64,000 bases of DNA from Escherichia coli (lineage in GTDB: Bacteria; Pseudomonadota; Gammaproteobacteria; Enterobacterales; Enterobacteriaceae). The first letter of the stretch is position 1. Each line of letters starts with the position of its first letter. The notes beneath the pieces are model-generated. The model was not told the origin of the DNA. It saw nothing but the letters and a program-made list of their open reading frames with translations, and ran no database searches. The stretch is from the NCBI RefSeq assembly GCF_013315695.1, contig NZ_CP054353.1. One strand, 5' to 3'. This document shows, one piece after another, positions 1 through 13,898 of the stretch. Made by a program: the position numbers and the translations under genes.

Positions 1-215
1 TGTGACGCTGGCAGGCTCTGCCACGGAATATCCGGTGAAGTACCACCGCTGCGCTTTACGGTGAGTTTTTCGAAGCTCTCCAGCGTCGAGAAGGAGAGAC
101 TGCATTCGGGATTGTTGCACTGGTAGAGCTTCTGCCGGACAGTGCGTGAGTCGTTCGCGGCGCGGCTTGTGCGGGTGCGCGTGCTCGCACCACAAAAAGG
201 ACACGGAAAAGACAT
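1..215 (-). CDS. ogr: Ogr/Delta-family zinc-finger late transcription activator (C-terminal end runs off the window start)
   Basis: Manual minus-strand translation from ATG 215: MSFPCPFCGASTRTRTSRAANDSRTVRQKLYQCNNPECSLSFSTLESFEKLTVKRSGG... The CxxC...CxxxxC layout matches P2 Ogr. GGAGG lies 8 nt upstream. Absent from the ORF track because it is truncated by the window edge. Confidence 0.7.
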   Translation of the reverse strand, partial: MSFPCPFCGASTRTRTSRAANDSRTVRQKLYQCNNPECSLSFSTLESFEKLTVKRSGGTSPDIPWQSLPAS

Positions 216-267
216 GACGGAGACCTCCTTTTTTTCATGAAGGTGAATCTCCGTGATTTTATTCCTG

Positions 268-1383
268 TTATTCCTGTTGCGCTATCCATTCAGGAATTTT
301 TAATTCCAGCTCAAGCCGCGTGGTGAAGCCGCTGTCGTCGATGTTGTGCTCCACCTTCGCCAGTACCCAGTCCTCCGCGTCGATGTCACTCTTGAAACCG
401 GATACCGTGCCGCGCATTTCGGGGTACAGGTCGGGGCGACCGCGTGCCAGCGTGATGGAGAACTCAGCCGCGCCGCGCTGTAGCTGCTGCCATTTTGCCG
501 CCGCTGCACGGCGTGCGGCCTCCTCGTTTTTGAAGGTTTTACGCATGACGTACACATTGCCGTCTGCGCCCTCCATGTAATCCCCCTCGCGGCTGCTGCT
601 TTTCTCCTTTTTTGTTTTTTGGGCAGAACCACGTTTTGTCACGCTGACTTTTTTCTTTTTGCCAAAGTCCAGATCCAGCCAGTAAGCGCGCACCCCCGTG
701 TACGCCTGCCGGTCTGCAATGCGGAAGTGATGGCTGTCACCGCTGCTGCGGGTGATGGCGAATGAGGGCAGCGGCTTTCCGCTGGCGCTCACCCCCTGTC
801 CGGGCACGATGAAAAGCAGGGCACCGTTTTTGACGGTGGCGATGGCGCCCAGCATGTCCGCCATGCGCGTGAGAAACGAGATGTCACTTTCCTCCGTCTG
901 GTCGGCGTGGTCGATTTCCACCTCTGCCAGCGAGGCGCTGATTTGTGCCTTCAGTCCGTAGCGGTACGCGATGGCAGAAACAACCTGTCCCACCGTCACG
1001 TCATGCCAGGACACTTCACGCTTCACGTTGAACTCCTGCCGGAAGTCTGCGCTGCTGGCCGTGATGGTGAGCCTATCCGGTGGTCCCTCATGTGTCACCT
1101 CGTCAACGATGAAGGTTCCCTTGTCTGTCAGCGCCTCACCTTTCCAGCCCAGCGCCAGACCCAGCGTCTGTCCGCGCTTCGGGAGTTGCACTCCGCCGTC
1201 GCAGTCGTCAATCGTGAGGGTTAACTGGTCCGCCTCAAATCCCCGGTTGTCGGTCATCGCCAGCGAGATGACCCGTCGGGTCAGCGCCGCGTTTTCCGTG
1301 CCCTTAACCGTGATGGAAAAATCAGGGATCTTCACGCACTCTGACAGACCGTTCAGGTATCCGCTTACGTCCGCAGGGTTCAT
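268..1383 (-). CDS. gpD: P2 gpD-like tail protein (late control gene D family)
   Basis: ORF track 268..1566. Start moved to the internal ATG (MNPADVSGYLNGLSECVK...) with GGAG upstream. At 371 aa, size and sequence resemble P2 gpD. Followed by ogr as in P2. Confidence 0.8.
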   Translation of the reverse strand: MNPADVSGYLNGLSECVKIPDFSITVKGTENAALTRRVISLAMTDNRGFEADQLTLTIDDCDGGVQLPKRGQTLGLALGWKGEALTDKGTFIVDEVTHEGPPDRLTITASSADFRQEFNVKREVSWHDVTVGQVVSAIAYRYGLKAQISASLAEVEIDHADQTEESDISFLTRMADMLGAIATVKNGALLFIVPGQGVSASGKPLPSFAITRSSGDSHHFRIADRQAYTGVRAYWLDLDFGKKKKVSVTKRGSAQKTKKEKSSSREGDYMEGADGNVYVMRKTFKNEEAARRAAAAKWQQLQRGAAEFSITLARGRPDLYPEMRGTVSGFKSDIDAEDWVLAKVEHNIDDSGFTTRLELELKIPEWIAQQE

Positions 1384-1455
1384 CGCAATTTCTCCGTCTG
1401 TGTCTTCGTCCGGCGAAATACTCCCACGCGCACGGAGGCGCTGTAATCCTGCGTA

Positions 1456-1481
1456 TGTTGTCGGAGAACGGTGAGAACAGG
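1456..1481. promoter_or_regulatory. Candidate late-promoter activator site (dyad) shared by divergent gpD and sheath genes
   Basis: TGTTGTCGGAGAACGGTGAGAACAGG, an imperfect dyad TGTTGTC-N10-GAGAACA. A 23/26 identical copy lies at 20014..20039. It is centred about 78 bp from the sheath ATG and about 85 bp from the D ATG. Confidence 0.5.
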
Positions 1482-1545
1482 CAGCGCGTGAATGCGGGGC
1501 TGTTTTTCGGGAGGATGTCGCCACACAAAACACCAGGAGGTGCTC

Positions 1546-2727
1546 ATGAGTGAAACACGCTTTCACGGTGCACGCGTCAAAGAAAACACCGACCTTGTGA
1601 CCGCGATTAATGACATTGATTCCAGTGTCATCGGTATCGTGGCCACGGCGGACGATGCAGACAGCGACGCGTTCCCGTTAAACAAACCCGTATTGATCAC
1701 CCGCGTGGCGAATGTGCTGGGTAAGGCAGGCACAACAGGCACGCTGTACAAAACGCTCAAGGCGATTTCCGACCAGACCAGCCCGAAGGTTATCGTGGTG
1801 CGTGTGGCTGAAGCCGGAGAGGAAGGTGAGACACAGGATCAGCTTGTCATCGGTGGCTCGCAGGCTGACGGCAGCTACACGGGCATGTATGCCCTGCTGG
1901 TTGCTGAACAGGACGAGAGCATTGGTTACCGCCCGCGCATTCTGGCGGCTCCCGGCCTGGATACCGAAGCAGTCACATCCGCCCTGTGCGTCATTGCGGA
2001 CAAGCTCCGCGCCTTTGTGTACGCCGGATGTAACGGGTGCGACACGATGGCGGAGGCAATCACTTACCGTGCGAAGTTCTCCGCGCGTGAGCTGATGCTG
2101 CTGTGGCCTGACTTCATTGCCTACAACCCGGTGAGCGGAAATAACGAAACATTTCCGGCAGCGGCGTATGCGTGCGGGTTGCGTGCGCGGATTGACAGTG
2201 AACAGGGCTGGCACAAGTCACTGTCCAACGTGGCGCTGAAAAATGTTCTCGGTATGTCGCAGCAGGTGTTCTGGTCGTTGCAGGCCGAAGACAGTGATGC
2301 GAACAACCTGAACAACAAGGAAATCACCACGATTATTCGCCGTAACGGCTTCCGCTTCTGGGGGAACCGTACTGCCGAAACCAGCGACTACATCTTTGAG
2401 GTGTACACGCGCACAGCGCAGATTCTGGCAGATACCATCGCTGAGGCGCAGTTCGAAACCATTGACGAACCGCTGACCCCGGCGAACGTGAAGGACGTGA
2501 TTAGCGCCATCCGCGCAAAACTCAACGCCCTGGTCACCGCCGGGAAACTCATCGGTGCGGAGTGCTGGTATGACGTGCTGGACAACGGCACGACGGATTT
2601 GCGTCAGGGGCGCGTGCGCATCCGCTACAAGTACACGCCAGTGCCGCCGATGGAAGATCTGACGCTGTATCAGACCTTCACGGATGAGTATTTCGACTCC
2701 GCTTTTGCAACGCTGGGAGGTGCGTAA
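1546..2727 (+). CDS. gpFI: Contractile tail sheath protein (P2 FI-like)
   Basis: ORF track 1492..2727. Start set to ATG 1546 (MSETRFHGARV), preceded by AGGAGG. Collinear by eye with P2 FI (FPLNKPVLIT, GWHKSLSNV, RRNGFRFWGNRT, YTRTAQ, YKYTPVPP). Confidence 0.92.
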   Translation: MSETRFHGARVKENTDLVTAINDIDSSVIGIVATADDADSDAFPLNKPVLITRVANVLGKAGTTGTLYKTLKAISDQTSPKVIVVRVAEAGEEGETQDQLVIGGSQADGSYTGMYALLVAEQDESIGYRPRILAAPGLDTEAVTSALCVIADKLRAFVYAGCNGCDTMAEAITYRAKFSARELMLLWPDFIAYNPVSGNNETFPAAAYACGLRARIDSEQGWHKSLSNVALKNVLGMSQQVFWSLQAEDSDANNLNNKEITTIIRRNGFRFWGNRTAETSDYIFEVYTRTAQILADTIAEAQFETIDEPLTPANVKDVISAIRAKLNALVTAGKLIGAECWYDVLDNGTTDLRQGRVRIRYKYTPVPPMEDLTLYQTFTDEYFDSAFATLGGA

Positions 2728-3243
2728 ATGGCTGTACCACGTTACGTTCGCCAGTTCACGCTGTTTGTGAACGGCAAAAACAAAATCGGCACGGTGACAG
2801 GCGTCACTCTGCCCAAGCTGACCCGAAAAACCGAAGCCTATCGCGGTGGCGGGATGCTGGGTGCGGTGCATATTGACCTCGGACTGGATGACGGCGCACT
2901 GGATGCCTCGTTCACCACCGGTGGGGTTGAAAAAGAGCTGCTCCAGGAATACGCCACTGACATTAACGAAGTGGCGCTGCGCTTTGTGGGTGAGCTGTTC
3001 ACCGATGGTGAGGAAAGTCAGCTCCTTGAGGTGGAGATGCGCGGACGCATCACGGAAATCGACCGTGGCGAAACCAAACAGGGCGACACCACACAGTACA
3101 CCTTCGCCGTCAAAAACACCTACTACAAGGAGTCGGTGGATGACAGTGATGTGACAGAAATCGACCTGCTGAACTTCATCTACAAAAAAGACGGCCAGAA
3201 CGTCTTTGGTGACCGCGTGAGTTCGGCGCTCGGTCTGAACTGA
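2728..3243 (+). CDS. gpFII: Tail tube protein (P2 FII-like)
   Basis: ORF track. Abuts the sheath stop codon (TAAATG). 171 aa, in the position and size of FII. Confidence 0.85.
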   Translation: MAVPRYVRQFTLFVNGKNKIGTVTGVTLPKLTRKTEAYRGGGMLGAVHIDLGLDDGALDASFTTGGVEKELLQEYATDINEVALRFVGELFTDGEESQLLEVEMRGRITEIDRGETKQGDTTQYTFAVKNTYYKESVDDSDVTEIDLLNFIYKKDGQNVFGDRVSSALGLN

Positions 3244-3289
3244 CAGCATTAACAGGGCGGCACATTGTGCCGCCACAGGAGAAAGAAAA

Positions 3290-3673
3290 ATGGCAGCAAA
3301 GAAAGATGACATCATGAACAGCGAAATCGTCGCAGGTGACACCACCACTGAAAACATCGATGTGGCAGAGGAAAAAACGGGGGTGAAGTTATCCTGCCCG
3401 GTGGTGCGTGGCGAACGCGTTATTGACTACGTGGAGATTGGCGAGGAAATCCGTCAGGCAGGCTCGTTGCGCGGGCTGTCTCTGATTGAGGTGCTGAACC
3501 TCAAAACGGACCCGATGATGACGCTGCTTTCGCGCGTGACCGCACCACGCCTGAAGCTGGCAGAAATCCAGACACTGGACACCGGTGATTTCGTGGCGCT
3601 GGCGACTATGGCTGCGAATTTTTTTGCTCCCACGGAGTCTGCGAAACCGTCCGTGGCGGTGATGGAAGCGTAA
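3290..3673 (+). CDS. gpE: Tail assembly chaperone (P2 gpE-like)
   Basis: ORF track. A 127-aa acidic protein between tube and tape measure, carrying a T7 slippery run near its 3' end. Confidence 0.8.
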   Translation: MAAKKDDIMNSEIVAGDTTTENIDVAEEKTGVKLSCPVVRGERVIDYVEIGEEIRQAGSLRGLSLIEVLNLKTDPMMTLLSRVTAPRLKLAEIQTLDTGDFVALATMAANFFAPTESAKPSVAVMEA

Positions 3674-3837
3674 TCACGCTGGCGAAGTTCGACAACGTTG
3701 AAGAACTGGTCGCTGATATAGCAGTCGTGTTTAACTGGTCGCCCGGCGAGATATTCTCAATGCCTCTCGTCGAGGTGATGAGCTGGCGTGAGCGGGCGGC
3801 GCAACGTAGCGGAGTCCGCAACAGTGAAATCCCTTGA
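3290..3837 (+). CDS. gpE': Tail assembly chaperone frameshift product (gpE+E'-like, programmed -1 frameshift)
   Basis: Codons AAT TTT TTT GCT at 3617..3628. A -1 slip on the T run 3619..3625 opens a frame with no stop until TGA 3835..3837. The extension ends ...NWSPGEIFSMPLVEVMSWRERAAQRSGVRNSEIP and overlaps the tape-measure start. Confidence 0.75.
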
Positions 3838-6800
3838 TATTCGTGTCAGCTTTGGCGCAATTGACCGGCTGACATGCCCGACCGAAAACGCCCGCCGTCA
3901 GGTGGGCGCTCTCACTGAATCCCTTCAGAAGACGCAGAACAACATACAGGCGCTCGACAGACAGTCGAAGGTGTTCGATCGTGCCGCCGGAAATCTCAGT
4001 AAATACCGCGAACAGATTGCCCGCGCGGAGCAGAGGCTCGCCGGGCTGCGAAAGGCAGAGCAGAACGGTAACATCCTCTCCGAAAAGCAGCGCGAAACGC
4101 TGGCGGCACTCTCCGCGCGGCTTGAGCGCCTGAACGAGCTGCGCACGCGCGAGCGCGAAAAACTCCAGGCGGCGGCTGGCGAAATGCGTAAACATGGCAT
4201 TCTGCTTTCCGGCAGCAGCCGCACCATCGAAAGTGCCGTTCGTCGCACGCAGCAGTACAACGAGCAGCTCGAGCGTGAACGGCAGGCTCTGGCTCGCGTG
4301 ACGCAGGCACAGAGCCGCTATGAGGCCGCGAAGGCACAGGCGGAAAAACTGCGCAACACAGGGGCTGTGGCGATGGCGGCGGGTACAGGCGGCCTGTATG
4401 CGGCGCAGCGCATGATGGCTCCGGCGATGGAGTCCGAACAGCACGGTGCGGTCATCGCAGCCGGTTCGGGGGAAGGCGCACAGGATGGCGCACGTTACAC
4501 CCACATCATCCGTAACATACAGGCTGACGGTCTCGCTGATTTTGCCGGTGCTGCGGAGGCCGTGAGTGCGGTACGCAGCACGCTCGGCGCACTGGGCGAC
4601 ACCGGTGACAGGGAGCTTGAGCGCATCAGCCGTCGTGCGCTGGATATGCGGACCGTCTTTGGTGTTGATGTGCCGCAGAGCATTCAGGCCGCTGCCATCA
4701 TGATGAAGAACGGGCTGGCCGCCAGCAGTGACGAGGCTACTAACCTGATGACGGCAGGGATGCAGCGCATGTCCGCTGAAATGCGCGATGAACTGCCGGA
4801 AATTCTGCATGAGTATTCCACCCACTTCCGCAACATGGGCTTCACCGGCAGCGAGACAATGAGTCTGCTGGTTGAGATGGCAAAGCAGGGCAAGTTTGCG
4901 CTGGACAAAACCGGCGATGCCGTGAAGGAGTTCAGTATCCGTGGTTCGGATATGTCGAAATCCAGTGTTTCAGCGTATGAGACACTTGGCCTGAATGCCG
5001 AACGGGTGTCTGCTGCCATTGCTCAGGGGGGCAGTACCGCACGCCAGGCGATGCAGGTGACCGCCCGTGCACTGCTGGCCATCCGTGACCCGGCAGAGCG
5101 GGCGAACACGGCCATTGCGTTATTCGGCACCCCCGTTGAAGACCTTTCCGTTGACCAGATCCCGCAGTTCCTGAGGGCGCTGGCTGATGTTCGTGACAAT
5201 CTGGGCGATGTCACCGGTGTGGCAGACCGCATGGGGCAGACGCTGCGCGGTAATCTCTCCGGCGATATTCAGGCGCTGAGTGGTGCGTTCTCAGGGCTAC
5301 GCACGGACATCTTCGGTACTGTGACCGAGGATTTGCGCGGGCTGGTTCAGACGGTGAGCGCGTGGGTGACCCGGATGCGCGAATGGGTCGGAGAGCATCA
5401 GGCGCTGGTCAGGGTGCTGGTACTGGCGGGCGGGAGTGTTCTGGCGCTGTCTTCTACGTTCGGTGCGCTGTCACTGACGCTCGGGCTGATTGCGGGGCCG
5501 CTGGCAAAACTGCAACTGGGACTGGGGCTGCTGACGGGGGGCGGCGGCATTGGTGGTGCTGTCCGGCTTGTGTCTGCGATGGCGCTGCGCCTGACGGGGC
5601 TGCCTGCGCTGTGGGGGCTGGTCACGGGGGCGGTGTCGGTACTGGGTGGTGCAGTGGGGGCGCTGTTCAGCCCGGTCGGGCTGATTGTTGCCGCCCTGGT
5701 GGGCGGCGCGGTTCTGGTGTGGAAATACTGGGATCAGATCAGTGCGTTTTTTTCCGGCTTTTTTGCCGGAGTGTGGGAGGCGCTGCAACCGCTGCGGGAA
5801 GCCTTTGCGTCGCTGGCTCCGGTGTTCGGGCTGATTGGCGATGGCATCAAAGCCGTGTGGGAATGGTTCACCCGCCTGCTTGAACCTGCAAACGCCTCAA
5901 AAGAGACACTCGACAAATGCACCAGCGCCGGGGAGTCGTTCGGGAAAACGCTGGGGTGGGTCATTCAGAACATTGTGCTGGGGCCGCTGACACTGCTTCT
6001 TGATGGCCTCGGCACAGTGCTGAAGTGGCTGGGTGTTATCCCGGATGGCATCAGGGAAGCGCAGAAGGAGACGCAAAAACTCCAGGAGAGCGCCGCAAAA
6101 CAGGCCACACAAAAAGCGCCGGTTGCGTGGGAGTGGGATCCTGCACAGAAAAAAATGGTGCAGAAAACATGGTCGTGGTCATCAGATGCAGCGGAAAACA
6201 ACGGTGACAATAAACCCGCAATACCTGCCCCTGCGGTTCCCGGAGAGGTGAAGGGAACGTCAGACAATCCGGTCGGCAAACCCGGTAGTAAATCCCCGCT
6301 GGATGAGGCATGGTTCCGGCAGGGGATACAGAAAACCGCCAGCAACACCGGCGGGCTGCTTGAGGAAACCAAAAAACGTACTGGTCCCGGCGATATTGTT
6401 TTCAAAAACCTGCCCGGACCCGAAATCATTCACGGCGAGTGGAAAGCACCGCAGGTTATCCGGACAGTGCAGGCGGTATCGGCGGGCGGAGGACTGGCGG
6501 ATGCGCTGACAACGCTCTGGCAGAAACTCACCGGAAGACAGACTGCTTCACCCGTTCCGGTCGTGAATATTCCTGCGCCAGTGGAGAGAGTGGCACGTCA
6601 GGTATCCACGCTGCCACAGCCGCAGCACAACGAGGCAAATACAGAACTGGTTGCCGGTATTCAGCGCGTGCATGAGGCTGTGAACAGTCCGGGGGGAGAG
6701 ACGGTATCGCCTCCACCTGTGGTGAACGTTCTGATGCCAGCAGTGAATGTTCCTGCGCCAGTGGTGAGTGTGGCGCGTCAGGTATCCACGCTGCCGCAGC

Positions 6801-7288
6801 ACAACGAGGCAAATACAGAACTGGTTGCCGGTATTCAGCGTGTGCATGAGGCGGTGAACAGTCCGGGTGGAGAGACGGTATCGCCTCCACCTGTGGTGAA
6901 CGTTCTGATGCCAGCAGTGAATGTTCCTGCGCCAGTGGTGAGCGTGGCCCGTCAGGTATCCACGCTGCCGCAGCACAACGAGGCAAATACAGAGCTGGCT
7001 GCCGGTATTCAGCGCGTGCGTGAGGCTGTGAACAGTCCGGGTGGAGATGTGGCTTTATCTGTTCCTGTTGCGGAGGTTATCCGTCCACCGCTGCGACCGG
7101 AGTCCGTCAAAAAAGAAACCGCGCCACAAACGCAGGCTGCGGTATTTTCCGGTGAGATACACGTGCATCTGCACAACGTCAACACGCAGAATCCGCGTGA
7201 ACTGGCAAAACTGGTTGGCGAGGCTGTCCGCGAAGAGATGCGCAGACAGGTGCGTACAGGCATGAACAGCTTCCGTGACAGGGACTAA
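3824..7288 (+). CDS. gpT: Tail tape measure protein (P2 gpT-like)
   Basis: ORF track 3788..7288. The start is ambiguous: GTG 3788, or GTG 3824 (VKSLDIRVSFGAIDRL) with GGAG 9 nt upstream. Long helical N-terminal half, a Gly/Ala/Leu-rich hydrophobic core, and a position between E' and U. Confidence 0.9.
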   Translation: MKSLDIRVSFGAIDRLTCPTENARRQVGALTESLQKTQNNIQALDRQSKVFDRAAGNLSKYREQIARAEQRLAGLRKAEQNGNILSEKQRETLAALSARLERLNELRTREREKLQAAAGEMRKHGILLSGSSRTIESAVRRTQQYNEQLERERQALARVTQAQSRYEAAKAQAEKLRNTGAVAMAAGTGGLYAAQRMMAPAMESEQHGAVIAAGSGEGAQDGARYTHIIRNIQADGLADFAGAAEAVSAVRSTLGALGDTGDRELERISRRALDMRTVFGVDVPQSIQAAAIMMKNGLAASSDEATNLMTAGMQRMSAEMRDELPEILHEYSTHFRNMGFTGSETMSLLVEMAKQGKFALDKTGDAVKEFSIRGSDMSKSSVSAYETLGLNAERVSAAIAQGGSTARQAMQVTARALLAIRDPAERANTAIALFGTPVEDLSVDQIPQFLRALADVRDNLGDVTGVADRMGQTLRGNLSGDIQALSGAFSGLRTDIFGTVTEDLRGLVQTVSAWVTRMREWVGEHQALVRVLVLAGGSVLALSSTFGALSLTLGLIAGPLAKLQLGLGLLTGGGGIGGAVRLVSAMALRLTGLPALWGLVTGAVSVLGGAVGALFSPVGLIVAALVGGAVLVWKYWDQISAFFSGFFAGVWEALQPLREAFASLAPVFGLIGDGIKAVWEWFTRLLEPANASKETLDKCTSAGESFGKTLGWVIQNIVLGPLTLLLDGLGTVLKWLGVIPDGIREAQKETQKLQESAAKQATQKAPVAWEWDPAQKKMVQKTWSWSSDAAENNGDNKPAIPAPAVPGEVKGTSDNPVGKPGSKSPLDEAWFRQGIQKTASNTGGLLEETKKRTGPGDIVFKNLPGPEIIHGEWKAPQVIRTVQAVSAGGGLADALTTLWQKLTGRQTASPVPVVNIPAPVERVARQVSTLPQPQHNEANTELVAGIQRVHEAVNSPGGETVSPPPVVNVLMPAVNVPAPVVSVARQVSTLPQHNEANTELVAGIQRVHEAVNSPGGETVSPPPVVNVLMPAVNVPAPVVSVARQVSTLPQHNEANTELAAGIQRVREAVNSPGGDVALSVPVAEVIRPPLRPESVKKETAPQTQAAVFSGEIHVHLHNVNTQNPRELAKLVGEAVREEMRRQVRTGMNSFRDRD
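6551..7045 (+). repeat. In-frame tandem repeat inside the tape measure gene (174-bp unit, about 2.8 copies)
   Basis: Units lie at 6698..6871 and 6872..7045 (58 aa each: ETVSPPPVVNVLMPAVNVPAPVVSVARQVSTLPQHNEANTELVAGIQRVHEAVNSPGG, nearly identical). A partial variant copy sits at 6551..6697 with an extra PQ. Confidence 0.9.
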
Positions 7289-7301
7289 AGGAGACGCAAT
7301 T

Positions 7302-7760
7302 ATGATGATGATTTTTGGCATGTTTGTGTTTGAACTGAAAACGCTGCCGCATCAACAGATTCAACAAAACAAAACGTGGCGGCATGTGAAAAATGAGCGA
7401 ATCAACCGTTCTGCGGCCTGGCAGTATATTGGCGCAGGTGACGACCAGATCACGCTGTCCGGTCTGCTGTACCCGGAAATTACCGGCGGTGAGGTGTCGC
7501 TGACACTGCTGAACACCCAGGCCTACACCGGATGTCCCTGGCCGCTGATTGATGGTACGGGGCAGATTTACGGAATGTACGTGATTACGGGATTACAGAC
7601 CACCCGCTCCGAACTGGATCGCTACGGGAAGGCAAAAAAGATTGAGTTCTCCATCAGCTTTCAGCGGTGTGATGAGGATATGCGGGAGAGGCTTCAGTCT
7701 GCTTCTGCAGGTGATTTACTGAACACGCTTAAAGACAAAATGGCGATAGCGGCATTCTGA
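7302..7760 (+). CDS. gpU: Tail protein (P2 gpU-like)
   Basis: ORF track 7275..7760. Start set to ATG 7302 (MMMIFGMFVFELKTLPHQ) after AAGGAG, 14 nt after the tape-measure stop. Confidence 0.85.
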   Translation: MMMIFGMFVFELKTLPHQQIQQNKTWRHVKNERINRSAAWQYIGAGDDQITLSGLLYPEITGGEVSLTLLNTQAYTGCPWPLIDGTGQIYGMYVITGLQTTRSELDRYGKAKKIEFSISFQRCDEDMRERLQSASAGDLLNTLKDKMAIAAF

Positions 7761-7771
7761 ATAAAAAAAGA

Positions 7772-7792
7772 GGGAGTGTAAAAAGCACTCCC
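7772..7792 (+). terminator. Stem-loop after gpU (weak intrinsic terminator)
   Basis: GGGAGTG-TAAAAAG-CACTCCC followed by TTATT, 12 nt after the gpU stop. Confidence 0.45.
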
Positions 7793-7884
7793 TTATTGCC
7801 TTCATGGAAAAGAAGCAAATGTTGTCAATACATTCTGACTATATATAAATCGCCCGATGAAGGCAATGGTGATGTTCGGGAAAT

Positions 7885-7907
7885 AAAAAAGCCCTCACAA
7901 AGAGGGC
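7885..7907 (-). terminator. Orphan intrinsic terminator (minus strand)
   Basis: Plus strand reads A6-GCCCTC-ACAAA-GAGGGC, so on the minus strand a hairpin is followed by T6. No intact gene lies upstream of it. Confidence 0.5.
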
Positions 7908-8070
7908 GGCATGCATTGTGTGAAGATTTAATTTTTCTGCTTGCAGGGGGATTATATTGAACGGTATTCATTCAATGCAATATTTTTAATTGTCATTATC
8001 ATTAATGAAAATGTTTCTTGTGTTTTTGTTGCTCTGATTACAATCCCGTTTATTACTGTGTCTTTGCGGC

Positions 8071-8096
8071 AAAAAAAAAGCCCGCACGGGGCGGGC
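8071..8096 (-). terminator. Intrinsic terminator downstream of the tfa pseudogene (minus strand)
   Basis: Plus strand reads A9-GCCCGC-ACGG-GGCGGGC. On the minus strand a GC hairpin is followed by T9, about 45 nt after the pseudogene stop. Confidence 0.65.
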
Positions 8097-8140
8097 AAAG
8101 AATGTTTGCATGTGTAGAACAGTGCGGGATTATAAATATA

Positions 8141-8710
8141 TTATGCGTTCTGAAAAGTCCCCTTTGATGGAGATTCAGGCCATACCAGCGCATTATAACA
8201 ATCTTTATTCATCACGGAAGTGAACGTCAACTGCTGAAGTTCCCTAATATATTCAATCCACGTAGCCAACCTTCCCTTGTCTGCATTGCTGATGGTGCCG
8301 GGCAATAACTCAGATTGCCAGATTCTGATCCTCTCTTTTGCCTCCGGCAGCAGGGGATTTCGTTGTCATTCTGCTTTAGCCTGCCACTTTTCAGGTGGCA
8401 GCACATGACGAACAATATTTTCATCATCAAATATCCAGTTACCTGAGTCATCAGCACGTTGGTTAGCGTTAATATCAGAAGTATTAACAACACTAAAACC
8501 GACATGATTAAGTGTTGATGCCTCTCTGGTAATGGTGACAATAATATTATTTCGTTGTAAATCATTTTGATTTTATCTGGTCGAAAGGTCCCTGCTTCGT
8601 TATGTCAGTTTTATCGCCTTCAGAGGAAACCAGATTACTTTGTGCTTCTTTTTCTAACACATACAGTCCCGGAGTTAATATTGCCTGTTTTATGTTCTTG
8701 AGTGCATCAT
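8141..8710 (-). pseudogene. Tail fibre assembly protein (Tfa/TfaE-like) pseudogene with several 1-nt frameshifts
   Basis: Manual three-frame reading on the minus strand gives MMH / LKNIKQAILTPG...DQIKSK / MIYNE / NNIIVTITREASTLNHVGFSVVNTSDINANQRADDSGNWIFDDENIV...WQAKAE / ...LLPEAKERIRIWQSELLPGTISNADKGRLATWIEYIRELQQLTFTS...VWPESP. The pieces are collinear with remembered e14/Mu-type Tfa proteins. The 112-aa ORF 8227..8565 is only one of these frames. Confidence 0.6.
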
Positions 8711-8770
8711 ATTAATCTCTTACATATTGTATCTGGTGAAATTTATAATTTTCTGAAGCTGCCTGAAAGA

Positions 8771-8898
8771 ATTGAGTTTCCTGCAGGCTTTCAATGGTGT
8801 GATGAGGATATGTGGGAGAAACTCCAGTCTGCTCCTGCAGGGGGGGCTTACTGAACACTATCAAAGACAAATCTTCGTCGTTGATCGCATTCCCTTAA
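8771..8898 (+). pseudogene. Degenerate duplicate of the 3' end of gpU
   Basis: attgagtttcctgcaggctttcaatggtgtgatgaggatatgtgggagaaactccagtctgctcctgcagg... aligns at roughly 80% with gpU 7641..7760 on the same strand. The frame is broken. Confidence 0.7.
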
Positions 8899-8903
8899 CC
8901 TGA

Positions 8904-8938
8904 CGCCACCACCCCACACAGATGACGGGGTGGTGGCG
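8904..8938. terminator. 12-bp GC-rich stem-loop between the convergent tail and fibre gene sets
   Basis: CGCCACCACCCC-(11 nt)-GGGGTGGTGGCG lies between the gpU remnant (+) and orf98 (-). Only weak T tracts flank it. Confidence 0.5.
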
Positions 8939-8943
8939 TGATT

Positions 8944-9240
8944 TCACCAGTAACTAACCAGCAGCCAGAACAACAGGCATATTGCCACTGGTGCAGCAAA
9001 ATCCATCAGGCTTCCGGCATCCCACACGCGCGGATCAAAACCACCCCACCAGGGCATGTTAATTCGTTTCCCTTTCCCGAATTTTTCAATCCAGCGATAT
9101 TCTGCCTGGGTGTGTTCACGCGCAATGAAGAACGAGCAACCGGCTATCGCTCCGTAAACCCAGTTTCCCGTAAGAATGCCAGCCAGTACCTGCGCAGCCA
9201 CGGCACAAAGTGCATGAAGGACAGGCGTTATATCCATCAC
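8944..9240 (-). CDS. Small integral membrane protein, unknown function (three predicted TM segments)
   Basis: ORF track, 98 aa. Hydrophobic stretches at about aa 5-24, 26-40 and 78-97. Last gene of the fibre operon, at the position equivalent to P2 Z/fun. Confidence 0.6.
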   Translation of the reverse strand: MMDITPVLHALCAVAAQVLAGILTGNWVYGAIAGCSFFIAREHTQAEYRWIEKFGKGKRINMPWWGGFDPRVWDAGSLMDFAAPVAICLLFWLLVSYW

Positions 9241-9249
9241 TCCCTCCCT

Positions 9250-9528
9250 TCAGCTCCATTCCCGAAGCGGTGCTTCCAGCTCCACCACATAATCAGAGAA
9301 CACAGAAACATCAAACGTATCATCAAGAATACGAATGTTGACAAAATAACCGTCATTCCGGATACAGACAGGTTCTCCCTCTTCATTTTCCCCTGTTTCT
9401 GTATAGGTGAAACCAATTTCATCGACTAACAGTTTGTTCTGGAGGTCTTCATTTTCCTCCCAGCCAAGAGATGACAGGAGGGCTTTAAACTGCTGTTTGT
9501 CATGAAACTTCAAAGTCAAATCTTTCAT
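9250..9528 (-). CDS. Small acidic protein, unknown function (possible fibre chaperone or accessory)
   Basis: ORF track, 92 aa. Its start overlaps the tail fibre stop by 4 nt, implying translational coupling. Confidence 0.6.
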   Translation of the reverse strand: MKDLTLKFHDKQQFKALLSSLGWEENEDLQNKLLVDEIGFTYTETGENEEGEPVCIRNDGYFVNIRILDDTFDVSVFSDYVVELEAPLREWS

Positions 9529-11306
9529 ATTGCCTCTCTTAATTGCCTGTCATTTAATTCTTTATGCCATATGCGGAAATTACGAATGTGACCAAACAGA
9601 TGTCGTTCTCCAGTACTCGTTCGCCCTCCAATACGGATAATTGCGGAGTTCTGAATATATGACCATGTGGTTTTTGTTTCGCCGGATAACCGTCCGTTAC
9701 TGACTGAGCATGTAGACTGATCTGACTTTACTCGCATCCCTATAACCATTTTTTCAAGTGATGCGTTTTCGTTTACCCGCATGTTAGCCCCGCCTATATC
9801 GCAATAAGGAAATCCGTCGTAATCCGTCGAACGACCGAATCCAAGAATAATTTCCTCTCCAGTTTGATGACCACTGGTATTAAGAACACGCGGTGCTGCA
9901 TTTGGCGTTTTATACCAGTTCTTATGTACCTCACAAAGAACAGTAAAAGGAGGATTATAAAGATTATTCTTAACCGGAACTGTCACAATATCACTTGCAC
10001 GTGTTGCTGGTGTTGCACCCGATATAATAAATGATGATGCGCAGGGGCCATTTTCAACCTGAGGGGTGGACAGGAAAACATAATCTCCTGATTCAACGAC
10101 ACCACCTTCTTTCGGAGTGTATTGTATTGCCGATGTTATGTAGGACTCATCAATTGCCTGAATCGTTGCCTCTGCAAAAATCCAGCCGGTAACCTCATCT
10201 TTGTTAACTCGGGCAGTGATCCTGTCGGCAGCTCCTCCTGTGATTTTAACTGATAAAGATCGCGTATTAACAATGGCATATCCAAGGTTAGATGATGTGT
10301 TGCCATCGTAAGATTCAAACCTGATCCTTAACATGAGTTCCAGATCAGTTTTAAATCTGCACGATGTCGTCACGCACTTATTATCGCCTGAAACATCGAC
10401 GGCTCCGGTTACTGCAACTGATGCCATGTTAACAGGCAGGGACTGCCCAATCAGAGAATCGTTACAGACGAACTTTCCATAGGTAAAACCAGAACTGTCC
10501 GTCCCGGTTTCGGGAACATCCATATTTACCGACTTGCCCCAGTTGACCGGGGTTTCCGAATTGAGCATGTAGTTTGTTCTTTGCCCTTCAATAAGCAGTC
10601 CATCGCGTTCAAATCGCGGCTCATTAATTTCAGCTATTTTCAGTTCACCGGATTTATTGATATAGGTTGCCGTTGATGCGCGACTGAAACTAACCTGTTT
10701 ATCACTGGCAACCTGAACCACATCGTCACCAATGGTGATTTTTTTATAGCCCGGTGCGAACCCCGTAAGCATATCCAGTGAATCGTTAAACGGTATCCAC
10801 ACATCAGGCAGCGGCGGTACAGACTCCTTTTCCTGCGCAACATATTCTTCAACATAGGCGCGGGTGGCGAGCACGACAGAGGGATCAACTTTCAGTTCGA
10901 CAGACGAAGCACTGGAAACCACAACAATCATGCGAATCGTCTGCGTGCGCCCGCTTCCCTCGGTGAGTACAGGCTTGTAGGTTTCGGGGCAGTTCGCCAC
11001 GGCAATCATCACGCCGTCGCTGTCAAAAAGCCCAATCTCGCGGATCCAGAACCCCCCTTTATCTTCCGGGATAATCATCTCGGCGATAAGCTGGCTGGCA
11101 TCAGACGCGCTGATGCTCAGTTGATTCAATGGGGCGCTGTATACCGTGTTCACCAGATTTTCCATGGAAGCCTCCGGTTCCGGCAGGCTGCCGCCGCCAT
11201 CCCCCAGTTTCATGGTGGTGATGGATATTTTCGAGCCGCTGGCCACCGCCTTTGCCAGACGGGCGGCACCCTTGTCAGTCAGAACAGAAAAATATTTTAC
11301 AGTCAT
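9525..11306 (-). CDS. gpH: Tail fibre protein (P2 gpH-like N-terminus, unrelated AT-rich C-terminal receptor-binding part)
   Basis: ORF track. N-terminal ~150 aa collinear with P2 H (ITTMKLGDGGG, GFWIREIGLFD, IAVANCPETYKP, EGSGRTQTIRM). The C-terminal end (...GERHLFGHIRNFRIWHKELNDRQL) looks like a LamG/concanavalin-type fold motif; that is inference. Confidence 0.85.
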   Translation of the reverse strand: MTVKYFSVLTDKGAARLAKAVASGSKISITTMKLGDGGGSLPEPEASMENLVNTVYSAPLNQLSISASDASQLIAEMIIPEDKGGFWIREIGLFDSDGVMIAVANCPETYKPVLTEGSGRTQTIRMIVVVSSASSVELKVDPSVVLATRAYVEEYVAQEKESVPPLPDVWIPFNDSLDMLTGFAPGYKKITIGDDVVQVASDKQVSFSRASTATYINKSGELKIAEINEPRFERDGLLIEGQRTNYMLNSETPVNWGKSVNMDVPETGTDSSGFTYGKFVCNDSLIGQSLPVNMASVAVTGAVDVSGDNKCVTTSCRFKTDLELMLRIRFESYDGNTSSNLGYAIVNTRSLSVKITGGAADRITARVNKDEVTGWIFAEATIQAIDESYITSAIQYTPKEGGVVESGDYVFLSTPQVENGPCASSFIISGATPATRASDIVTVPVKNNLYNPPFTVLCEVHKNWYKTPNAAPRVLNTSGHQTGEEIILGFGRSTDYDGFPYCDIGGANMRVNENASLEKMVIGMRVKSDQSTCSVSNGRLSGETKTTWSYIQNSAIIRIGGRTSTGERHLFGHIRNFRIWHKELNDRQLREAI

Positions 11307-12079
11307 GAAAAAATCCTCAAAGAATCCTCCAGAAATACCACTGATGCTGTCAGGGTTCCGGTTGTGGCGGTCAGTTGCATCACCGCCTGTGGCTCCACGG
11401 TCACCGCATCATCGCCCGTAACCTGTAATCCCATGACAATCCCCGCATCGACAGATACCGACGGTGTCGGCGGGTAAATGGTGAGCATGTCGCCGTCAAA
11501 GAAAGCCGGAGATGCCCGGAACACCGAAACAGTCTCAACACCGGCAGAAGCGGCTGGCCAGATTGTTGTTTCACTGCCGTCGTGCATGCCGGAAAACACA
11601 CGTGCGACTCCCTGCGTATCCAGCATAATGTTCAGCGAGGCAAGGTGGCGGCTGACCGGACGGGCATCGTCGATCAGTCGTGTCAGCTCGGAGTACGTTT
11701 CCTCTGTGATACCCGCGTCCTGCACGCCAATATCAATGCGGAACGTGCCGCGCGGGTCGCCGTTCTGCCACCACTCCGTCACGTTAATGACATAGCCAAA
11801 GGGTTCAACCACACGCCTGATGGCGCTGATGGTTCCCTTATGGCGGTGGATTGCCCAGGCATCACGGATCACCTGGCGCTTTGTTTCTTCCGTCCAGTCA
11901 CGATCCCACCTGTCCACGGACAGCGCCCACGCCAGATAAGGCAGCAGGGCTGCCGGGCAGGTGTCAGGATCCCAGAGCTGGTTAAGGCTGACAGGTAATG
12001 CTGACAACCGGGCGGTTCCCCGCTCCACGCAGCGCATGAAATCGCTGGCTGAAGGGGGGAGAAGTGACGGTTCACTCAT
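11303..12079 (-). CDS. gpI: Baseplate/tail protein (P2 gpI-like, with C-terminal extension)
   Basis: ORF track 11303..12142. Start set to ATG 12079 (MSEPSLLPPSASDF), overlapping the gpJ stop. The motif LLPYLAWALSVD is typical of gpI. Confidence 0.8.
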   Translation of the reverse strand: MSEPSLLPPSASDFMRCVERGTARLSALPVSLNQLWDPDTCPAALLPYLAWALSVDRWDRDWTEETKRQVIRDAWAIHRHKGTISAIRRVVEPFGYVINVTEWWQNGDPRGTFRIDIGVQDAGITEETYSELTRLIDDARPVSRHLASLNIMLDTQGVARVFSGMHDGSETTIWPAASAGVETVSVFRASPAFFDGDMLTIYPPTPSVSVDAGIVMGLQVTGDDAVTVEPQAVMQLTATTGTLTASVVFLEDSLRIFS

Positions 12080-12968
12080 TGGTTCCCCCTGTGCTGACCG
12101 TGAACGATGTGCAGTACGCTGACTGCACATCACTGATAACAATATTCTGTGCGGGGCTGGTCAGTTCCACGCGCTGAACGCCCTGAACATGCAGTGCGGC
12201 CATGATGGCGGAGAGCGCGACATCGCGACCGATTTTGCCCTGTTCGGCAAGCCAGGTTTCCAGATTGTTTCTGGCGGCATTCAGGATGGGTTCCGACTCC
12301 GGCCCCGGATAAAAGTAAAGCCGGGCATCAATCTGATACCGTATGATTTCTGCGCTCTGCACCGTCAGACGGTCACCGACCGGGCGAACGTCTTCGGCAT
12401 TCAGCGCATTTCTGACCGTTGTCAGGAGTTCTTCGGTCGCCGTGCCGTCGCCTTCTGTGGACAACACTGTCACCACCACTTCCGCCGGTGCGGGGCTGGT
12501 TGCGCGCGCGTCCGCCACCTGACCGCTGGCACTGCGGGCAAAATATTCATACGCCCCGGTGGGACCGGCCACGCTGAGGCCATCAAATGCAGACTGCGCA
12601 CGCAGCCGCAGGGCGGAGTCGCTTTCCATGACGGCCTCCGTGGTGTCCATGGCCGGTGTGATGACCAGCCGCGCGGTGTTCATGTTGGCAGCGAGGTTGT
12701 CCAGGTCATCACCTGTGGAATGGCTCAGCATACAGGCCGCTGCGCCCTCATTAATGCGCTGGCGAAGCAGCAGTTCACGCAGCGCGAAAGCCTGGGCAAT
12801 GACCGTGAGCGGTTCGGACTCCAACGCCATGGCTGACCGGATGGCAGCCTGCTGTGTCTGTGGAAATGACGTAATGATGTCTTCTTTCACTTCCGCTAGG
12901 ATGACTTCAAAATCCGGCGTTTCAATAATCTGTGGTGTCGGCAGTTCCGACAGGTCAACGGCTGGCAT
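12072..12968 (-). CDS. gpJ: Baseplate wedge protein (P2 gpJ-like)
   Basis: ORF track, 298 aa, placed between gpW and gpI. Confidence 0.85.
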   Translation of the reverse strand: MPAVDLSELPTPQIIETPDFEVILAEVKEDIITSFPQTQQAAIRSAMALESEPLTVIAQAFALRELLLRQRINEGAAACMLSHSTGDDLDNLAANMNTARLVITPAMDTTEAVMESDSALRLRAQSAFDGLSVAGPTGAYEYFARSASGQVADARATSPAPAEVVVTVLSTEGDGTATEELLTTVRNALNAEDVRPVGDRLTVQSAEIIRYQIDARLYFYPGPESEPILNAARNNLETWLAEQGKIGRDVALSAIMAALHVQGVQRVELTSPAQNIVISDVQSAYCTSFTVSTGGTNE

Positions 12969-13320
12969 TGTCGCTCCTGAGTGTCAGTGTGTTCTGTACG
13001 GTTTCCAGGCTTTCTGTCAGTGTGCCGGTGAGGGTGATAACGGCTTTTCCGCCCGCCTCCCACTGAATGTCAACGGCATTCAGGGCGATGCGTGGCTCCC
13101 ACTGTGTCAGGGCAATCACCACGGCGCTCATGCACTGAAGGCGCGTGGTGGCATTCATCGGTGCATCCAGCAAATCCGGCAGCAGGCTGCCGTATTCCCG
13201 GCGCATCACCCGGCTGGCGAGCGGTGTTAACAGAATATCCCTCACGCTGTTCCACAGATGGTCCGTGTCGCTGAGCGTGCCGGTGGCCTCGGGGTTCATC
13301 CCCAGAAAACGGGCACTCAC
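12955..13320 (-). CDS. gpW: Baseplate protein (P2 gpW / T4 gp25-like)
   Basis: ORF track, 121 aa. Its start overlaps the gpV stop by 4 nt. Confidence 0.85.
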   Translation of the reverse strand: MSARFLGMNPEATGTLSDTDHLWNSVRDILLTPLASRVMRREYGSLLPDLLDAPMNATTRLQCMSAVVIALTQWEPRIALNAVDIQWEAGGKAVITLTGTLTESLETVQNTLTLRSDNASR

Positions 13321-13898
13321 TGCGGGCCTCCTGTGCTGTCACCGCCGCTCTTCACGCCACTGTGTTTGTGCGTGTGCAGCGTCACACCGTTTGAGGTGAA
13401 ATCACCGCCGCTGTGCGAGATACTGCCACTCATGGTTCCGCCTTCTGTCACCTCAATCGTTGTCGTCTTCAGATGGTTTGTGCAGGTGACGGTGGGGGTA
13501 TCCAGCGTCACGCCTGTTCCGGCCTGAATGGTGGCAGTTTTGATTCCGCTGGCGCTCAGTGCGCCAGCGTCCGCATCGTAGCGGAACACCGCGCCGTCAG
13601 GCGCTGTAACCACGATTTCCGTCAGGCTGCTGCCGGGCGCCGGATGTTCGCTGCTCCAGAGACTGCCGATGACGGACGCGGTCGCGGGGTCGCCACCGAT
13701 GCAGGCAATCATGACCTGTTCGCCCACGGCAGGCGGCAGCCAGACGCTGAACGCGCCCGCGCGTGGTGTGTTCCAGCGCAGCCAGTCGGTTTCCAGCTCT
13801 CCGCTGCGCACGCGAACGCGCCACGTTGTTTCGTCCACGGCAAAAATCACGCCCGTGCGGATGATATTTGCAAGCAGTCGCATGATTTCCGCTGTCAT
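13317..13898 (-). CDS. gpV: Baseplate assembly/spike protein (P2 gpV-like)
   Basis: ORF track, 193 aa; N-terminus MTAEIMRLLANIIRTGVI... Confidence 0.85.
   Translation of the reverse strand: MTAEIMRLLANIIRTGVIFAVDETTWRVRVRSGELETDWLRWNTPRAGAFSVWLPPAVGEQVMIACIGGDPATASVIGSLWSSEHPAPGSSLTEIVVTAPDGAVFRYDADAGALSASGIKTATIQAGTGVTLDTPTVTCTNHLKTTTIEVTEGGTMSGSISHSGGDFTSNGVTLHTHKHSGVKSGGDSTGGPQ

Follow-up and report, generated by a model that had tools for sequence, protein, structure and literature searches.

How can the sheath-to-gpU operon of a P2-type prophage read against the strand of gpD, ogr and the fibre genes, and what would then drive gpD? In P2 (Peduovirus), FI to U, D and ogr run as one co-directional unit that shares its strand with V to G, and U overlaps D. 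The prophage in the window (the whole 64-kb stretch of Escherichia coli DNA analysed here) is P88-like and a relative of P2, but its order is ogr (215..1, minus), D (1383..268, minus), a 162-bp gap, FI-FII-E/E'-T-U (1546..7760, plus), about 1.2 kb of relics and then the fibre operon (minus). The genes concerned are:

215..1, minus strand, 3' end cut by the window edge: ogr-type late activator gene (C-X2-C-X24-C-X4-C)
268..1383, minus strand: gpD, tail/baseplate hub protein (Pfam Phage_GPD, E 2e-17; phrog_52, E 3e-151)
1546..2727, plus strand: FI, tail sheath (Pfam Phage_sheath_1, Gp18_domIII_N, Phage_sheath_1C)
2728..3243, plus strand: FII, tail tube (Pfam Phage_tube, E 3e-46)
3290..3673, plus strand: E, tail protein (phrog_103)
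3290..3835, plus strand: E', -1 frameshift product (slippery T_TTT_TTT at 3619..3625)
3788..7288, plus strand, longest ORF: T, tape measure (Pfam PhageMin_Tail, E 8.5e-17)
7275..7760, plus strand: gpU (Pfam Phage_P2_GpU, E 9e-40)
ATG at 19948, minus strand: O (Pfam)
20100..21842, plus strand: terminase P (Pfam)
21842..22891, plus strand: portal Q (P and Q counterparts in P2 are likewise opposed to O)

The earlier note had described FI to U as opposed to gpD, ogr and the fibre genes and diverging from D across 162 bp, and the gene identities, the strands and the gap (1384..1545) are as it gave them. It was also right that gpD is uncoupled from U and thus needs its own promoter. Its title, which set the operon against every other late gene, goes too far, as P and Q also lie on the plus strand.

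The gene set itself (O to S, V to H, FI to U, D, ogr, P and Q) is shared with P2, together with the E/E' frameshift and an Ogr zinc-finger activator, at a DNA similarity of about 10%. FI shares 85% identity with the P88 sheath and 46% with P2 FI. E' is genuine, its -1 frame to 3835 matching Pfam Phage_P2_GpE (E 1.4e-14), and the complete E. coli chromosome TUM9803 has a RefSeq-annotated GpE family ORF at the matching place. The likely starts of T and gpU are GVG 3824 and ATG 7302; the gpU homologue in TUM9803 is annotated with 152 aa. T, 1166 aa as the longest ORF in the window versus 935 aa in P88, contains a 174-bp tandem repeat of 2.8 copies at 6563..7047 (TRF score 832; repeat family D1). 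The ogr translation shares 40% identity with P2 Ogr (E 9e-14) and 87% with a TUM9803 protein that RefSeq names 'ogr/Delta-like zinc finger', and also matches the phrog_603 transcriptional regulator (E 1.5e-12).

The layout is widespread. We compared 165 sheath loci, namely 80 from GTDB, 80 from IMG/VR and references; each collection contributed its best 80 loci by similarity, so frequencies are biased and the survey speaks for these nearer relatives. In 95 loci D and FI diverge and the fibre genes converge on the operon, 59 loci follow the P2 order and the other 11 are truncated. Sheath identity splits the layouts exactly: all loci at or above 55.8% are inverted, and all at or below 52.6% have the P2 order. 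A probe for the junction finds matches in about 1,484 of 5,426 complete E. coli genomes, and seven of eight evenly spaced matches carry annotated D and sheath genes, or a sheath gene with an unnamed neighbour. TUM9803 has the same polarity and is collinear; the layout is present in a complete E. coli chromosome that aligns over 91% of the first 12 kb (92.5% identity). An assembly mis-join at 1384..1545 or 7761..8940, which the earlier note had raised against itself, can be dismissed. No support for it was found; the AT-rich, relic-filled interval 7761..8940 (GC 0.42) might look suspicious at first, but both junctions recur in independent complete genomes, in isolated phages and in 95 loci from two collections, so the polarity is not an artefact.

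Named phages show the same order. Escherichia phage P88 (also P88_4B11) and Citrobacter phage Shae_phiSM, both Xuanwuvirus, have ogr and D on the minus strand, FI, FII, E, E', T and U on the plus strand, fibre genes to O on the minus strand and P and Q on the plus strand, and are collinear with the window throughout. Their early region (24488..31967 in the window) is 88-97% identical, whereas the late region is merely about 70-75% identical; overall similarity is about 48% by a rough query-side measure. P88 is inducible and lyses many strains (PMC5285337, PMC6456863), so the layout works. Klebsiella phage 3LV2017 (Reginaelenavirus) differs in genus, host and fibre genes, but likewise has D (minus), then sheath, tube, E, T and U (plus), then a tail-collar fibre gene (minus); its D/FI junction matches the window in two pieces at about 71% identity. 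The earlier note took the polarity as unusual unless it proved to be the layout of a known P2-related genus, and it is essentially that: the standard order in Xuanwuvirus and Reginaelenavirus, hence in at least two recognised genera of Peduoviridae, and in prophages of many Enterobacterales. In the literature collection searched we found no paper that discusses the polarity explicitly; there, the layout is 'described' solely in deposited annotations. A different rearrangement is published for Smp131 and its relatives, P2-like phages of Stenotrophomonas, in which members of the V and F operons are reshuffled while TGT-N12-ACA-type promoters are kept, including PP' and PO' paired at a single palindromic site (PMC3931495). 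Judged by that description, it is an exchange of operon members in an unrelated host group, not an inversion of FI to U.

How did the polarity arise? In simple midpoint-rooted neighbour-joining trees of FI, D and U, the 95 inverted loci are monophyletic; the polarity thus does define a lineage, the point of the synteny comparison that the earlier note proposed. Its view that the arrangement is old also holds, with sheath identity within this lineage reaching down to 56%. Because the split tracks sheath identity exactly and the 95 loci form one clade, one old in-place inversion of the block from the FI promoter (PF) to U, since fixed in the lineage, is the probable origin, and the D/FI gap is probably a second bidirectional late promoter. 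The reverse history, a divergent ancestor from which P2 derived its co-directional FI to U and D, is quite unlikely. The midpoint-rooted sheath tree, with the two layouts as sister clades, leaves room for it, since such a tree does not polarise the change; however, in the D and U trees the inverted loci make up a single clade that lies within P2-type sequences (from Burkholderia, Pantoea, Erwinia, Serratia and other genera), and Mu-like phages and R-type pyocins also have sheath, tape measure and U/D-like genes in one direction. In the J tree the two layouts are not separated, so the history of the baseplate and fibre module is a different one.

A programmed switch, with FI to U flipped by a Cin/Gin-type invertase, would be another route to this polarity. 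An invertase gene does lie 75-166 nt after U in 9 of 70 relatives, and P88 and Shae_phiSM carry an invertible fibre segment there. However, the P88 invertase adjoins alternative fibre and assembly genes, not the sheath block; the window has no invertase after U; no inverted repeats were found flanking the FI-U block; and all 95 loci show one orientation, which follows phylogeny exactly. We give the switch virtually no credence.

With a single old inversion preferred, the question turns to the gap between D and FI, where the following elements bear on gpD and ogr expression:

1384..1545, 162 bp, between the strands: divergent D/FI control region (sequence; conserved blocks)
1418..1423, minus strand: -10-like hexamer GAGTAT, candidate PD, 47 nt from the box centre (conservation)
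1459..1476, centre 1467.5: predicted Ogr-type late-activator box TGT-N12-AGA (motif and PWM)
1514..1519, plus strand: -10-like hexamer GATGTC, candidate PF, 49 nt from the box centre (conservation)
20017..20034: second late box copy, in the 151-bp O/P gap (O ATG 19948, minus; P ATG 20100, plus)
256..261, minus strand, between the D stop and ogr: -10-like hexamer TAAAAT, candidate basal ogr promoter (conservation)

The gap is 133-192 bp long in all 95 inverted loci, and a Shine-Dalgarno GGAG precedes the D start (ATG 1383). The box is part of an extended imperfect dyad, TGTTGTC-N10-GAGAACA (1456..1479); an exact TGT-N12-ACA search misses it because its right half is AGA, not ACA. Its 26-nt extended motif occurs exactly twice in the 64 kb, in the D/FI and O/P gaps, with none expected; both copies have the same orientation and lie 62-65 nt upstream of the FI and P start codons. 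A PWM trained solely on D/FI boxes of distant relatives singles out these two sites in the window, and the same two in P88 and Shae_phiSM, far above all others (23.9-25.1 bits in contrast to 12.7 for the best unrelated site); P88 and Shae_phiSM share the two-box late architecture. TGT-N12-A.A is kept 85-98 nt before the FI ATG in 94 of 95 relatives. Also conserved are an ATGnT..CAnGnGCG block at -49 to -31 from the box centre, across 73 unique gaps, and GGGnGATnAT at +41 to +49, although common ancestry may account for part of such conservation of box and hexamers among related sequences. On its O side, the O/P gap carries a matching ATGATGACGCGC block (ATGAT..ACGCGC). The FI-side hexamer has the lineage consensus GATnAT; the D-side hexamer is weak, GAGTAT in the window and GACCAT in P88.

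P2 offers a precedent. Its late promoters and Ogr have been described (PMC3931495): late transcription begins about 55 nt beyond a TGT-N12-ACA-type box, and the divergent O and P promoters share one box. Its RefSeq record places a single 'activator binding site; pO, pP promoters' at 3057..3087, and the transcription starts lie 56 nt away on the left and 55 nt away on the right. P2 differs in that PV has a box of its own and a gap separates S from V; S and V overlap in the window, which thus has no PV gap. P2 boxes are not recognised by the lineage PWM (maximum 9.9 bits).

It is conceivable, though we consider it doubtful, that gpD and ogr are instead transcribed from an ordinary sigma-70 or ogr-type basal promoter independent of the late activator, and that the box serves FI-U alone. 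The box stands in one orientation before plus-strand genes in both gaps, its reverse complement scores far less (12.8-13.5 versus 23.9-25.1 bits), and P2 ogr has its own promoter. Against this, a consensus scan predicted no sigma-70 promoter in 1384..1545, on the minus strand or otherwise; gpD, as a structural late protein, has to be made in step with the rest of the tail; the gap mirrors the geometry of O/P, where O must be late-activated; P2 documents one site acting both ways; and the conserved D-side block lies at the right distance. For ogr itself, the hexamer at 256..261 is a possible basal promoter: a TAnAAT-like hexamer is kept there in most of 16 representative relatives, and the annotated P2 ogr promoter occupies the same place, whereas no -35 element turned up, nor did the consensus scan predict a promoter at this position.

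The other junction, where the FI-U operon meets the fibre genes, holds a series of relics and hairpins:

7771..7793, both strands: hairpin terminator after U, bidirectional in form (A-run before, T-rich stretch after; terminator scan)
7907..7891 and 8096..8080, minus strand: two similar intrinsic terminators (terminator scan; folds z ~ -3; repeat family D5)
about 8141..8570, minus strand: tail-fibre-assembly (P2 G-like) pseudogene (Pfam Caudo_TAP, E 4.2e-14; one in-frame TGA)
8766..8871, plus strand: decayed gpU 3'-end copy (87/107, 81%, against 7637..7739; E 9e-23)
8904..8938, both strands: G+C-rich stem-loop (exact 12-nt arms, 11-nt loop)
8944..11306, minus strand: distal fibre operon of ORF98 (8944..9240), ORF92 (9250..9528) and fibre H (9525..11306)

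The earlier note had the FI-U operon converging on the stem-loop at 8904..8938. The stem-loop is real: it occurs once in the window, 6 nt past the stop of ORF98, with folding energies of -29 to -31 kcal/mol (z -6 and -5) and no T-run; but the operon ends at its own hairpin, 10 nt past the U stop, which folds at -16.9 kcal/mol on the plus strand and -14.1 kcal/mol on the minus strand. The second copy of the gpU 3' end exists in plus orientation as claimed, and is present in TUM9803 too. It had been taken as a sign of the age of the inversion, and is more plausibly a scar left when two phages with this layout exchanged fibre modules. At the DNA level the pseudogene shares 70-76% identity with tfa of P88 and G of P2, and 8955..10820 shares about 82% with lambdoid side-tail-fibre regions; in place of the invertase and invertible fibre segment that follow U in P88, the window has the pseudogene, the U remnant and this lambdoid-shared fibre tip. 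Fibre H carries a Pfam Phage_tail_fib N-terminal domain (E 1e-56), and ORF98 and ORF92 match phrog_1443 and phrog_1361.

We propose the following. In an ancestor, the block of the PF promoter and FI-FII-E/E'-T-U would have flipped in place between a fibre-assembly gene and gpD, bringing the dyad-symmetric Ogr-type box of PF beside gpD. This single box in mid-gap, with -10-like hexamers about 47 nt on each side, may activate FI-to-U rightwards and D-to-ogr leftwards, as the one annotated P2 activator site serves the divergent PO and PP. Co-transcription of D and ogr would keep the late positive feedback on ogr, which probably retains its own weak promoter downstream of the D stop codon. The convergent end would be a recombination hot spot, where the tfa pseudogene and the gpU 3' fragment, arriving with a new module, are putative relics of a fibre-module swap.

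The polarity is thus the fixed order of P88/Xuanwuvirus, Reginaelenavirus and many enterobacterial prophages, and since this is the normal order of a large known P2-related group, it is ordinary rather than a new oddity. The D/FI gap, from its sequence and its analogy with O/P, suggests a second bidirectional late promoter; the late regulon would then consist of two bidirectional control regions, O/P and D/FI, serving four transcription units: O through the fibre genes, P-Q, FI-U and D-ogr.

The genes at the left end and in the late region, placed by an ORF map and family searches, are listed below.

Genes of the left end and late region
215..1, minus strand: ogr, truncated at its 3' end by the edge of the window (ORF map and family searches)
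1383..268, minus strand: gpD (ORF map and family searches)
1384..1545: D-FI gap, 162 bp
1546..2727, plus strand: FI (ORF map and family searches)
2728..3243, plus strand: FII (ORF map and family searches)
3290..3673, plus strand: E (ORF map and family searches)
E', ending at 3835, plus strand: -1 shift at T_TTT_TTT, 3619..3625; the frame matches Pfam GpE (E 1.4e-14)
3788..7288 (longest ORF), plus strand: T (ORF map and family searches)
U, stop at 7760, plus strand (ORF map and family searches)
20100..21842, plus strand: terminase P (family search)
21842..22891, plus strand: portal Q (family search)

The gene calls made earlier from the sequence alone agree with this map. FI, FII, E/E', T and U form an unbroken run in one direction, as in the canonical P2 F operon, while ORF98, ORF92, the fibre gene H, I, J, W, V, and S through O are all on the minus strand, the same as in the annotated prophage of the complete E. 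coli chromosome TUM9803. The earlier note placed every other late gene on the minus strand, which was overstated: P and Q are also on the plus strand, so FI-U is not the sole plus-strand late unit. P and Q oppose O here just as they do in P2. The Ogr product carries the pattern C-X2-C-X24-C-X4-C and shares 40% identity with P2 Ogr; truncated as it is, it gave no Pfam match, but PHROGs and pairwise BLAST did match. An Rfam search of 1..9600 returned no relevant match.

The tape-measure gene T contains a 174-bp tandem repeat at 6563..7047 (2.8 copies, 93% matches), that is, three 58-aa repeats. Its longest ORF encodes 1166 aa; the P88 protein has 935 aa and the P2 protein 815 aa. Tail length is usually set by tape-measure length; thus, the long T predicts either that the tail is longer or that T has recently expanded in frame. 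Between the portal gene Q and the early region there is a low-GC island (23000..24300, GC 0.447) containing a plus-strand 268-aa ORF at 23450..24256, probably a moron adjoining cos. In the host part of the window, an identical 18-mer, TGTTTTACGCGTATGACA, occurs at 49545..49562 and 56173..56190, 6.6 kb apart; the duplicate TGTTTTACGCGTATGACA hints at a repeated element there.

The layout of the window is P88-like: ogr and D on the minus strand diverge from FI to U on the plus strand, which converge on the minus-strand fibre operon. This opposition of FI-U to D-ogr and the fibre genes, as first noticed, is real. A mis-join in the assembly is ruled out, because the prophage in the TUM9803 chromosome, covering 91% of the window's first 12 kb at 92.5% identity, carries the identical layout. 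The closest phage matches over the D-FI junction are Xuanwuvirus P88_4B11, Citrobacter phage Shae_phiSM and PhiR44_2; the annotated records of P88_4B11 and Shae_phiSM show the same order and polarity, and Klebsiella phage 3LV2017 (genus Reginaelenavirus) is laid out as in the window. A 762-bp junction probe gave a two-piece, same-orientation match in about 28 deposited phage records, including P88, 500465-2, 520873, 503458, Chuche, Serratia KSP20 and many Klebsiella phages, and it matches 1,484 of 5,426 complete E. coli genomes. When eight evenly spaced rows of the probe matches were inspected, seven were two-piece over the junction and annotated as D plus sheath, or sheath plus an unnamed neighbour. 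The unusualness implied by the earlier note therefore does not hold, as the synteny comparison finds the polarity in two ICTV genera and many public annotations. It is an ordinary lineage trait, plain in many public annotations; a literature search for an explicit description of the FI-U polarity found none. The result serves mainly as a correction: to a reader schooled on P2, 186 or HP1 the polarity ought not to look odd, since it marks a very common enterobacterial prophage lineage. P88 is inducible and plaque-forming (PMC5285337, PMC6456863), thus the layout is fully functional.

How far the polarity defines a lineage was seen in a survey of sheath loci, 80 from one-genome-per-species GTDB contigs (the best 80 of at least 188 matches) and 80 from IMG/VR, found by sheath profile, together with references. 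D, U, J, the H N-terminus and ogr were positioned by tblastn at each locus. The new order occurs in 95 loci, the window and three references of the same layout included: D is found on the other strand, about 720 nt ahead of FI, with ogr beyond it, U lies 5.3 kb downstream of FI, and J and H follow beyond U on the opposite strand. The P2 order was verified in another 59 loci, P2 itself and 58 further P2-type loci; 11 loci were too short to classify. Sheath identity to the window splits the layouts perfectly, all loci at 55.8% or more having the new order and all at 52.6% or less the P2 order; the sheaths of the window and P88 share 85% identity. Among the hosts of the new order are Salmonella, Citrobacter, Enterobacter, Kosakonia, Klebsiella, Edwardsiella, Erwinia, Pantoea, Pectobacterium, Symbiopectobacterium, Mixta, Izhakiella and Trabulsiella. 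Two survey loci from contigs titled Vagococcus sp. WN89Y (L005 and L063) are P88-like and P2-like, with sheath identities of 84% and 49%; enterobacterial prophage loci in the assembly of a Gram-positive Vagococcus are most likely contamination.

In neighbour-joining trees of FI, D and U, the 95 loci form a single clade with no intruders and with the window inside it, and in the D and U trees this clade is nested among P2-type sequences. The J tree lacks the split by layout, thus the baseplate and fibre module is mosaic. A programmed invertible segment of the Gin/Cin/Hin type would have flanking inverted repeats, an adjacent invertase and both orientations. The repeat search of the window found no inverted repeats at the block boundaries, no invertase follows U in the window, and FI-U has one orientation only in 95 of 95 loci. 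One perfect 14-nt inverted pair, 453..466 with 7643..7656, falls within D and U and looks accidental. The FI-U polarity is a fixed, old inversion that defines a lineage and not a switch. The arrangement had been read as old from the start, and the single clade in three trees and the perfect sheath-identity split bear this out.

Compared with P2, two defining features of the canonical F operon fail. In P2, D lies directly downstream of U, the U stop overlapping the D start, and the operon shares its strand with V-G and follows it; in the window, D is on the opposite strand to U and upstream of FI, and the fibre and baseplate genes, read on the minus strand, converge on U. The element works like the P2 late system and belongs to the P88-like layout group. 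Collinearity with P88_4B11 extends throughout, at about 69-75% identity in the late region (274..22806) and 88-97% in the early region (24488..31967). The genome is thus strongly mosaic, a pattern pointing to a recent exchange of the early module between phages that have otherwise diverged. Membership of an ICTV genus usually calls for about 70% or more nucleotide similarity to a member across the complete genome. Similarity to P88_4B11 is about 48% at an aligned fraction of 0.61, a rough query-side figure that is approximate, the left prophage end lying outside the window. At this similarity, the prophage probably stands outside Xuanwuvirus in the strict sense, yet shares its architecture.

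The 1.2-kb interval between U and the fibre operon is AT-rich and filled with relics.

Features of the convergent end
7771..7793: hairpin after U, 10 nt past U, with an A-run 5' and a T-rich stretch 3'
7907..7891 and 8096..8080, minus strand: two similar terminators (terminator scan)
about 8141..8570, minus strand: P2 G-like tail-fibre-assembly (tfa) pseudogene (Caudo_TAP, E 4e-14; one in-frame TGA)
8766..8871, plus strand: gpU 3' remnant, 81% to 7637..7739 on the same strand (E 9e-23)
8904..8938: 12-bp stem-loop, -29 to -31 kcal/mol, without a T-run, 6 nt past the ORF98 stop

The gpU remnant and the 12-bp stem-loop, both reported earlier, are thus present. The tfa pseudogene shares 70-76% identity with P88 tfa and with P2 G. 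Relatives usually have a tfa gene on the minus strand whose end lies 130-300 nt past U, and an invertase takes its place in 9 of 70. The fibre tip and two small ORFs (phrog_1443 and phrog_1361) at 8955..10820 are about 82% identical to lambdoid side-tail-fibre regions, a likeness to many lambdoid coliphages that marks a host-range module common to the myovirus and siphoviruses. The simplest reading is that the fibre module was acquired from a donor phage with the same layout, which brought along its own U 3' end and stem-loop, and that the resident tfa gene was left decaying after the swap. The gpU remnant would then be the scar of that swap, and the donor would also have had a convergent U/fibre junction. 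The remnant had been taken as a sign of age; read as a scar, it gives no date for the inversion. The non-coding, AT-rich stretch 7800..8160 has a good minus-strand sigma-70-like promoter at 8156..8129 (TTTTCA-16-TATAAT) followed by the two near-duplicate terminators; it gave no Rfam match and could hold a small RNA or a tiny moron.

An exact search of the window for the P2 Ogr box, TGT-N12-ACA (PMC3931495), gave 10 matches against 15.8 expected and none in the D-FI gap. This search is misleading, because the right half of the box is AGA here. Comparison of the D-FI gap with the gap between O and P found a 26-nt motif, TGTTGTCGGAGAAC-N4-AGAACAGG, with exactly two copies in 64 kb (1456..1481 and 20014..20039; 0 expected), in the same orientation and 62-65 nt ahead of the FI and P start codons. 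Its core, TGT-N12-AGA at 1459..1476, is a putative box one mismatch from that of P2; more distant relatives have a perfect TGT-N12-ACA at the equivalent position, and TGT-N12-A.A is kept 85-98 nt ahead of FI in 94 of 95 loci. A position weight matrix (PWM) built only from the D-FI boxes of the distant relatives gave the following scores.

Box scores by PWM
Window: D-FI 23.9 bits; O-P 20.4 bits; best unrelated 12.7 bits
P88: D-FI 30.0 bits; O-P 23.8 bits; best unrelated 12.2 bits
Shae_phiSM: D-FI 31.3 bits; O-P 26.5 bits; best unrelated 11.6 bits
P2: D-FI none; O-P none; maximum anywhere 9.9 bits

In each genome of the lineage, two sites thus stand out, one per divergent gap. The D-FI gap holds a single dyad box midway. 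Its centre is 85 nt away from the start codon of D and 78 nt ahead of that of FI, compared with 83 nt ahead of FI for the box of PF, the FI promoter, in P2; the O-P gap holds a single box 78 and 75 nt from the O and P ATGs. S and V overlap by 4 nt, which leaves no room for a gap of the kind that houses PV, the V promoter, in P2. A third box upstream of V, at 13943..13972 on the minus strand inside the S 3' end with its centre 59 nt ahead of the V ATG, is too weak to call at 8.0 bits, although its place suits a PV-like promoter. In both P88 and Shae_phiSM, a third site that scores somewhat higher (11.6-11.9 bits) is present within a gene of the lysis region; such third sites are possible internal late promoters.

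We propose that the box in the D-FI gap serves both flanking genes. An ungapped profile built from 73 unique gaps has conserved -10-like hexamers on both sides of the box centre, about 47 nt away: on the FI side GATnAT, and on the D side a block ATGnT (reverse complement AnCAT), then CAnGnGCG. The O side of the O-P gap carries the same ATGATGACGCGC block as the D side of the D-FI gap. The D-side hexamer is weak, and a sigma-70 scan of the D-FI gap found no promoter. The P2 RefSeq record offers a direct precedent for two divergent late promoters served by a single dyad box: there, one "activator binding site; pO, pP promoters" (3057..3087) has transcription starts 56 nt to its left and 55 nt to its right; the P2 PO/PP region and the D-FI gap have the same geometry, one box between divergent late genes. 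From the shared geometry, the conserved hexamers and this precedent, we propose that inversion of the segment from PF to U brought the symmetric PF box next to gpD, and that the box would now activate PF and a new D promoter, PD, divergently, with D-ogr co-transcription in place of the long read-through from PF that supplies ogr late in P2. The inverted PF site would then be a second PO/PP-like bidirectional control region, and the whole late regulon, including late feedback to ogr through a short D-ogr transcript, would run from two shared Ogr boxes; we put the chances of this at about even. The second bidirectional late promoter, predicted from sequence, would be the sole mildly new element, and we found no prior description of such a rewiring of P2 late transcription.

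The P2 annotation assigns a shared terminator, past ogr, to the F operon and the ogr transcript alike. A conserved TAnAAT-like hexamer directly past the D stop (261..256) may be a basal ogr promoter, as in P2. At 216..262 and the equivalent position in relatives, a hairpin covers the ogr Shine-Dalgarno (ACGGAGA...TCTCCGT in the window; GTTCAACTCCC-N4-GGGGAG in many relatives) and may exert translational control of the late activator.

The FI-U polarity can be used as a quick synteny character separating P88-like from P2-like phages. If the D-FI gap is bidirectional and Ogr-dependent, a symmetric activator site permits the inversion of a 6-kb operon without loss of regulation. This would amount to a compact two-site late regulon, easy to test and usable in engineered P2/P4-type systems.
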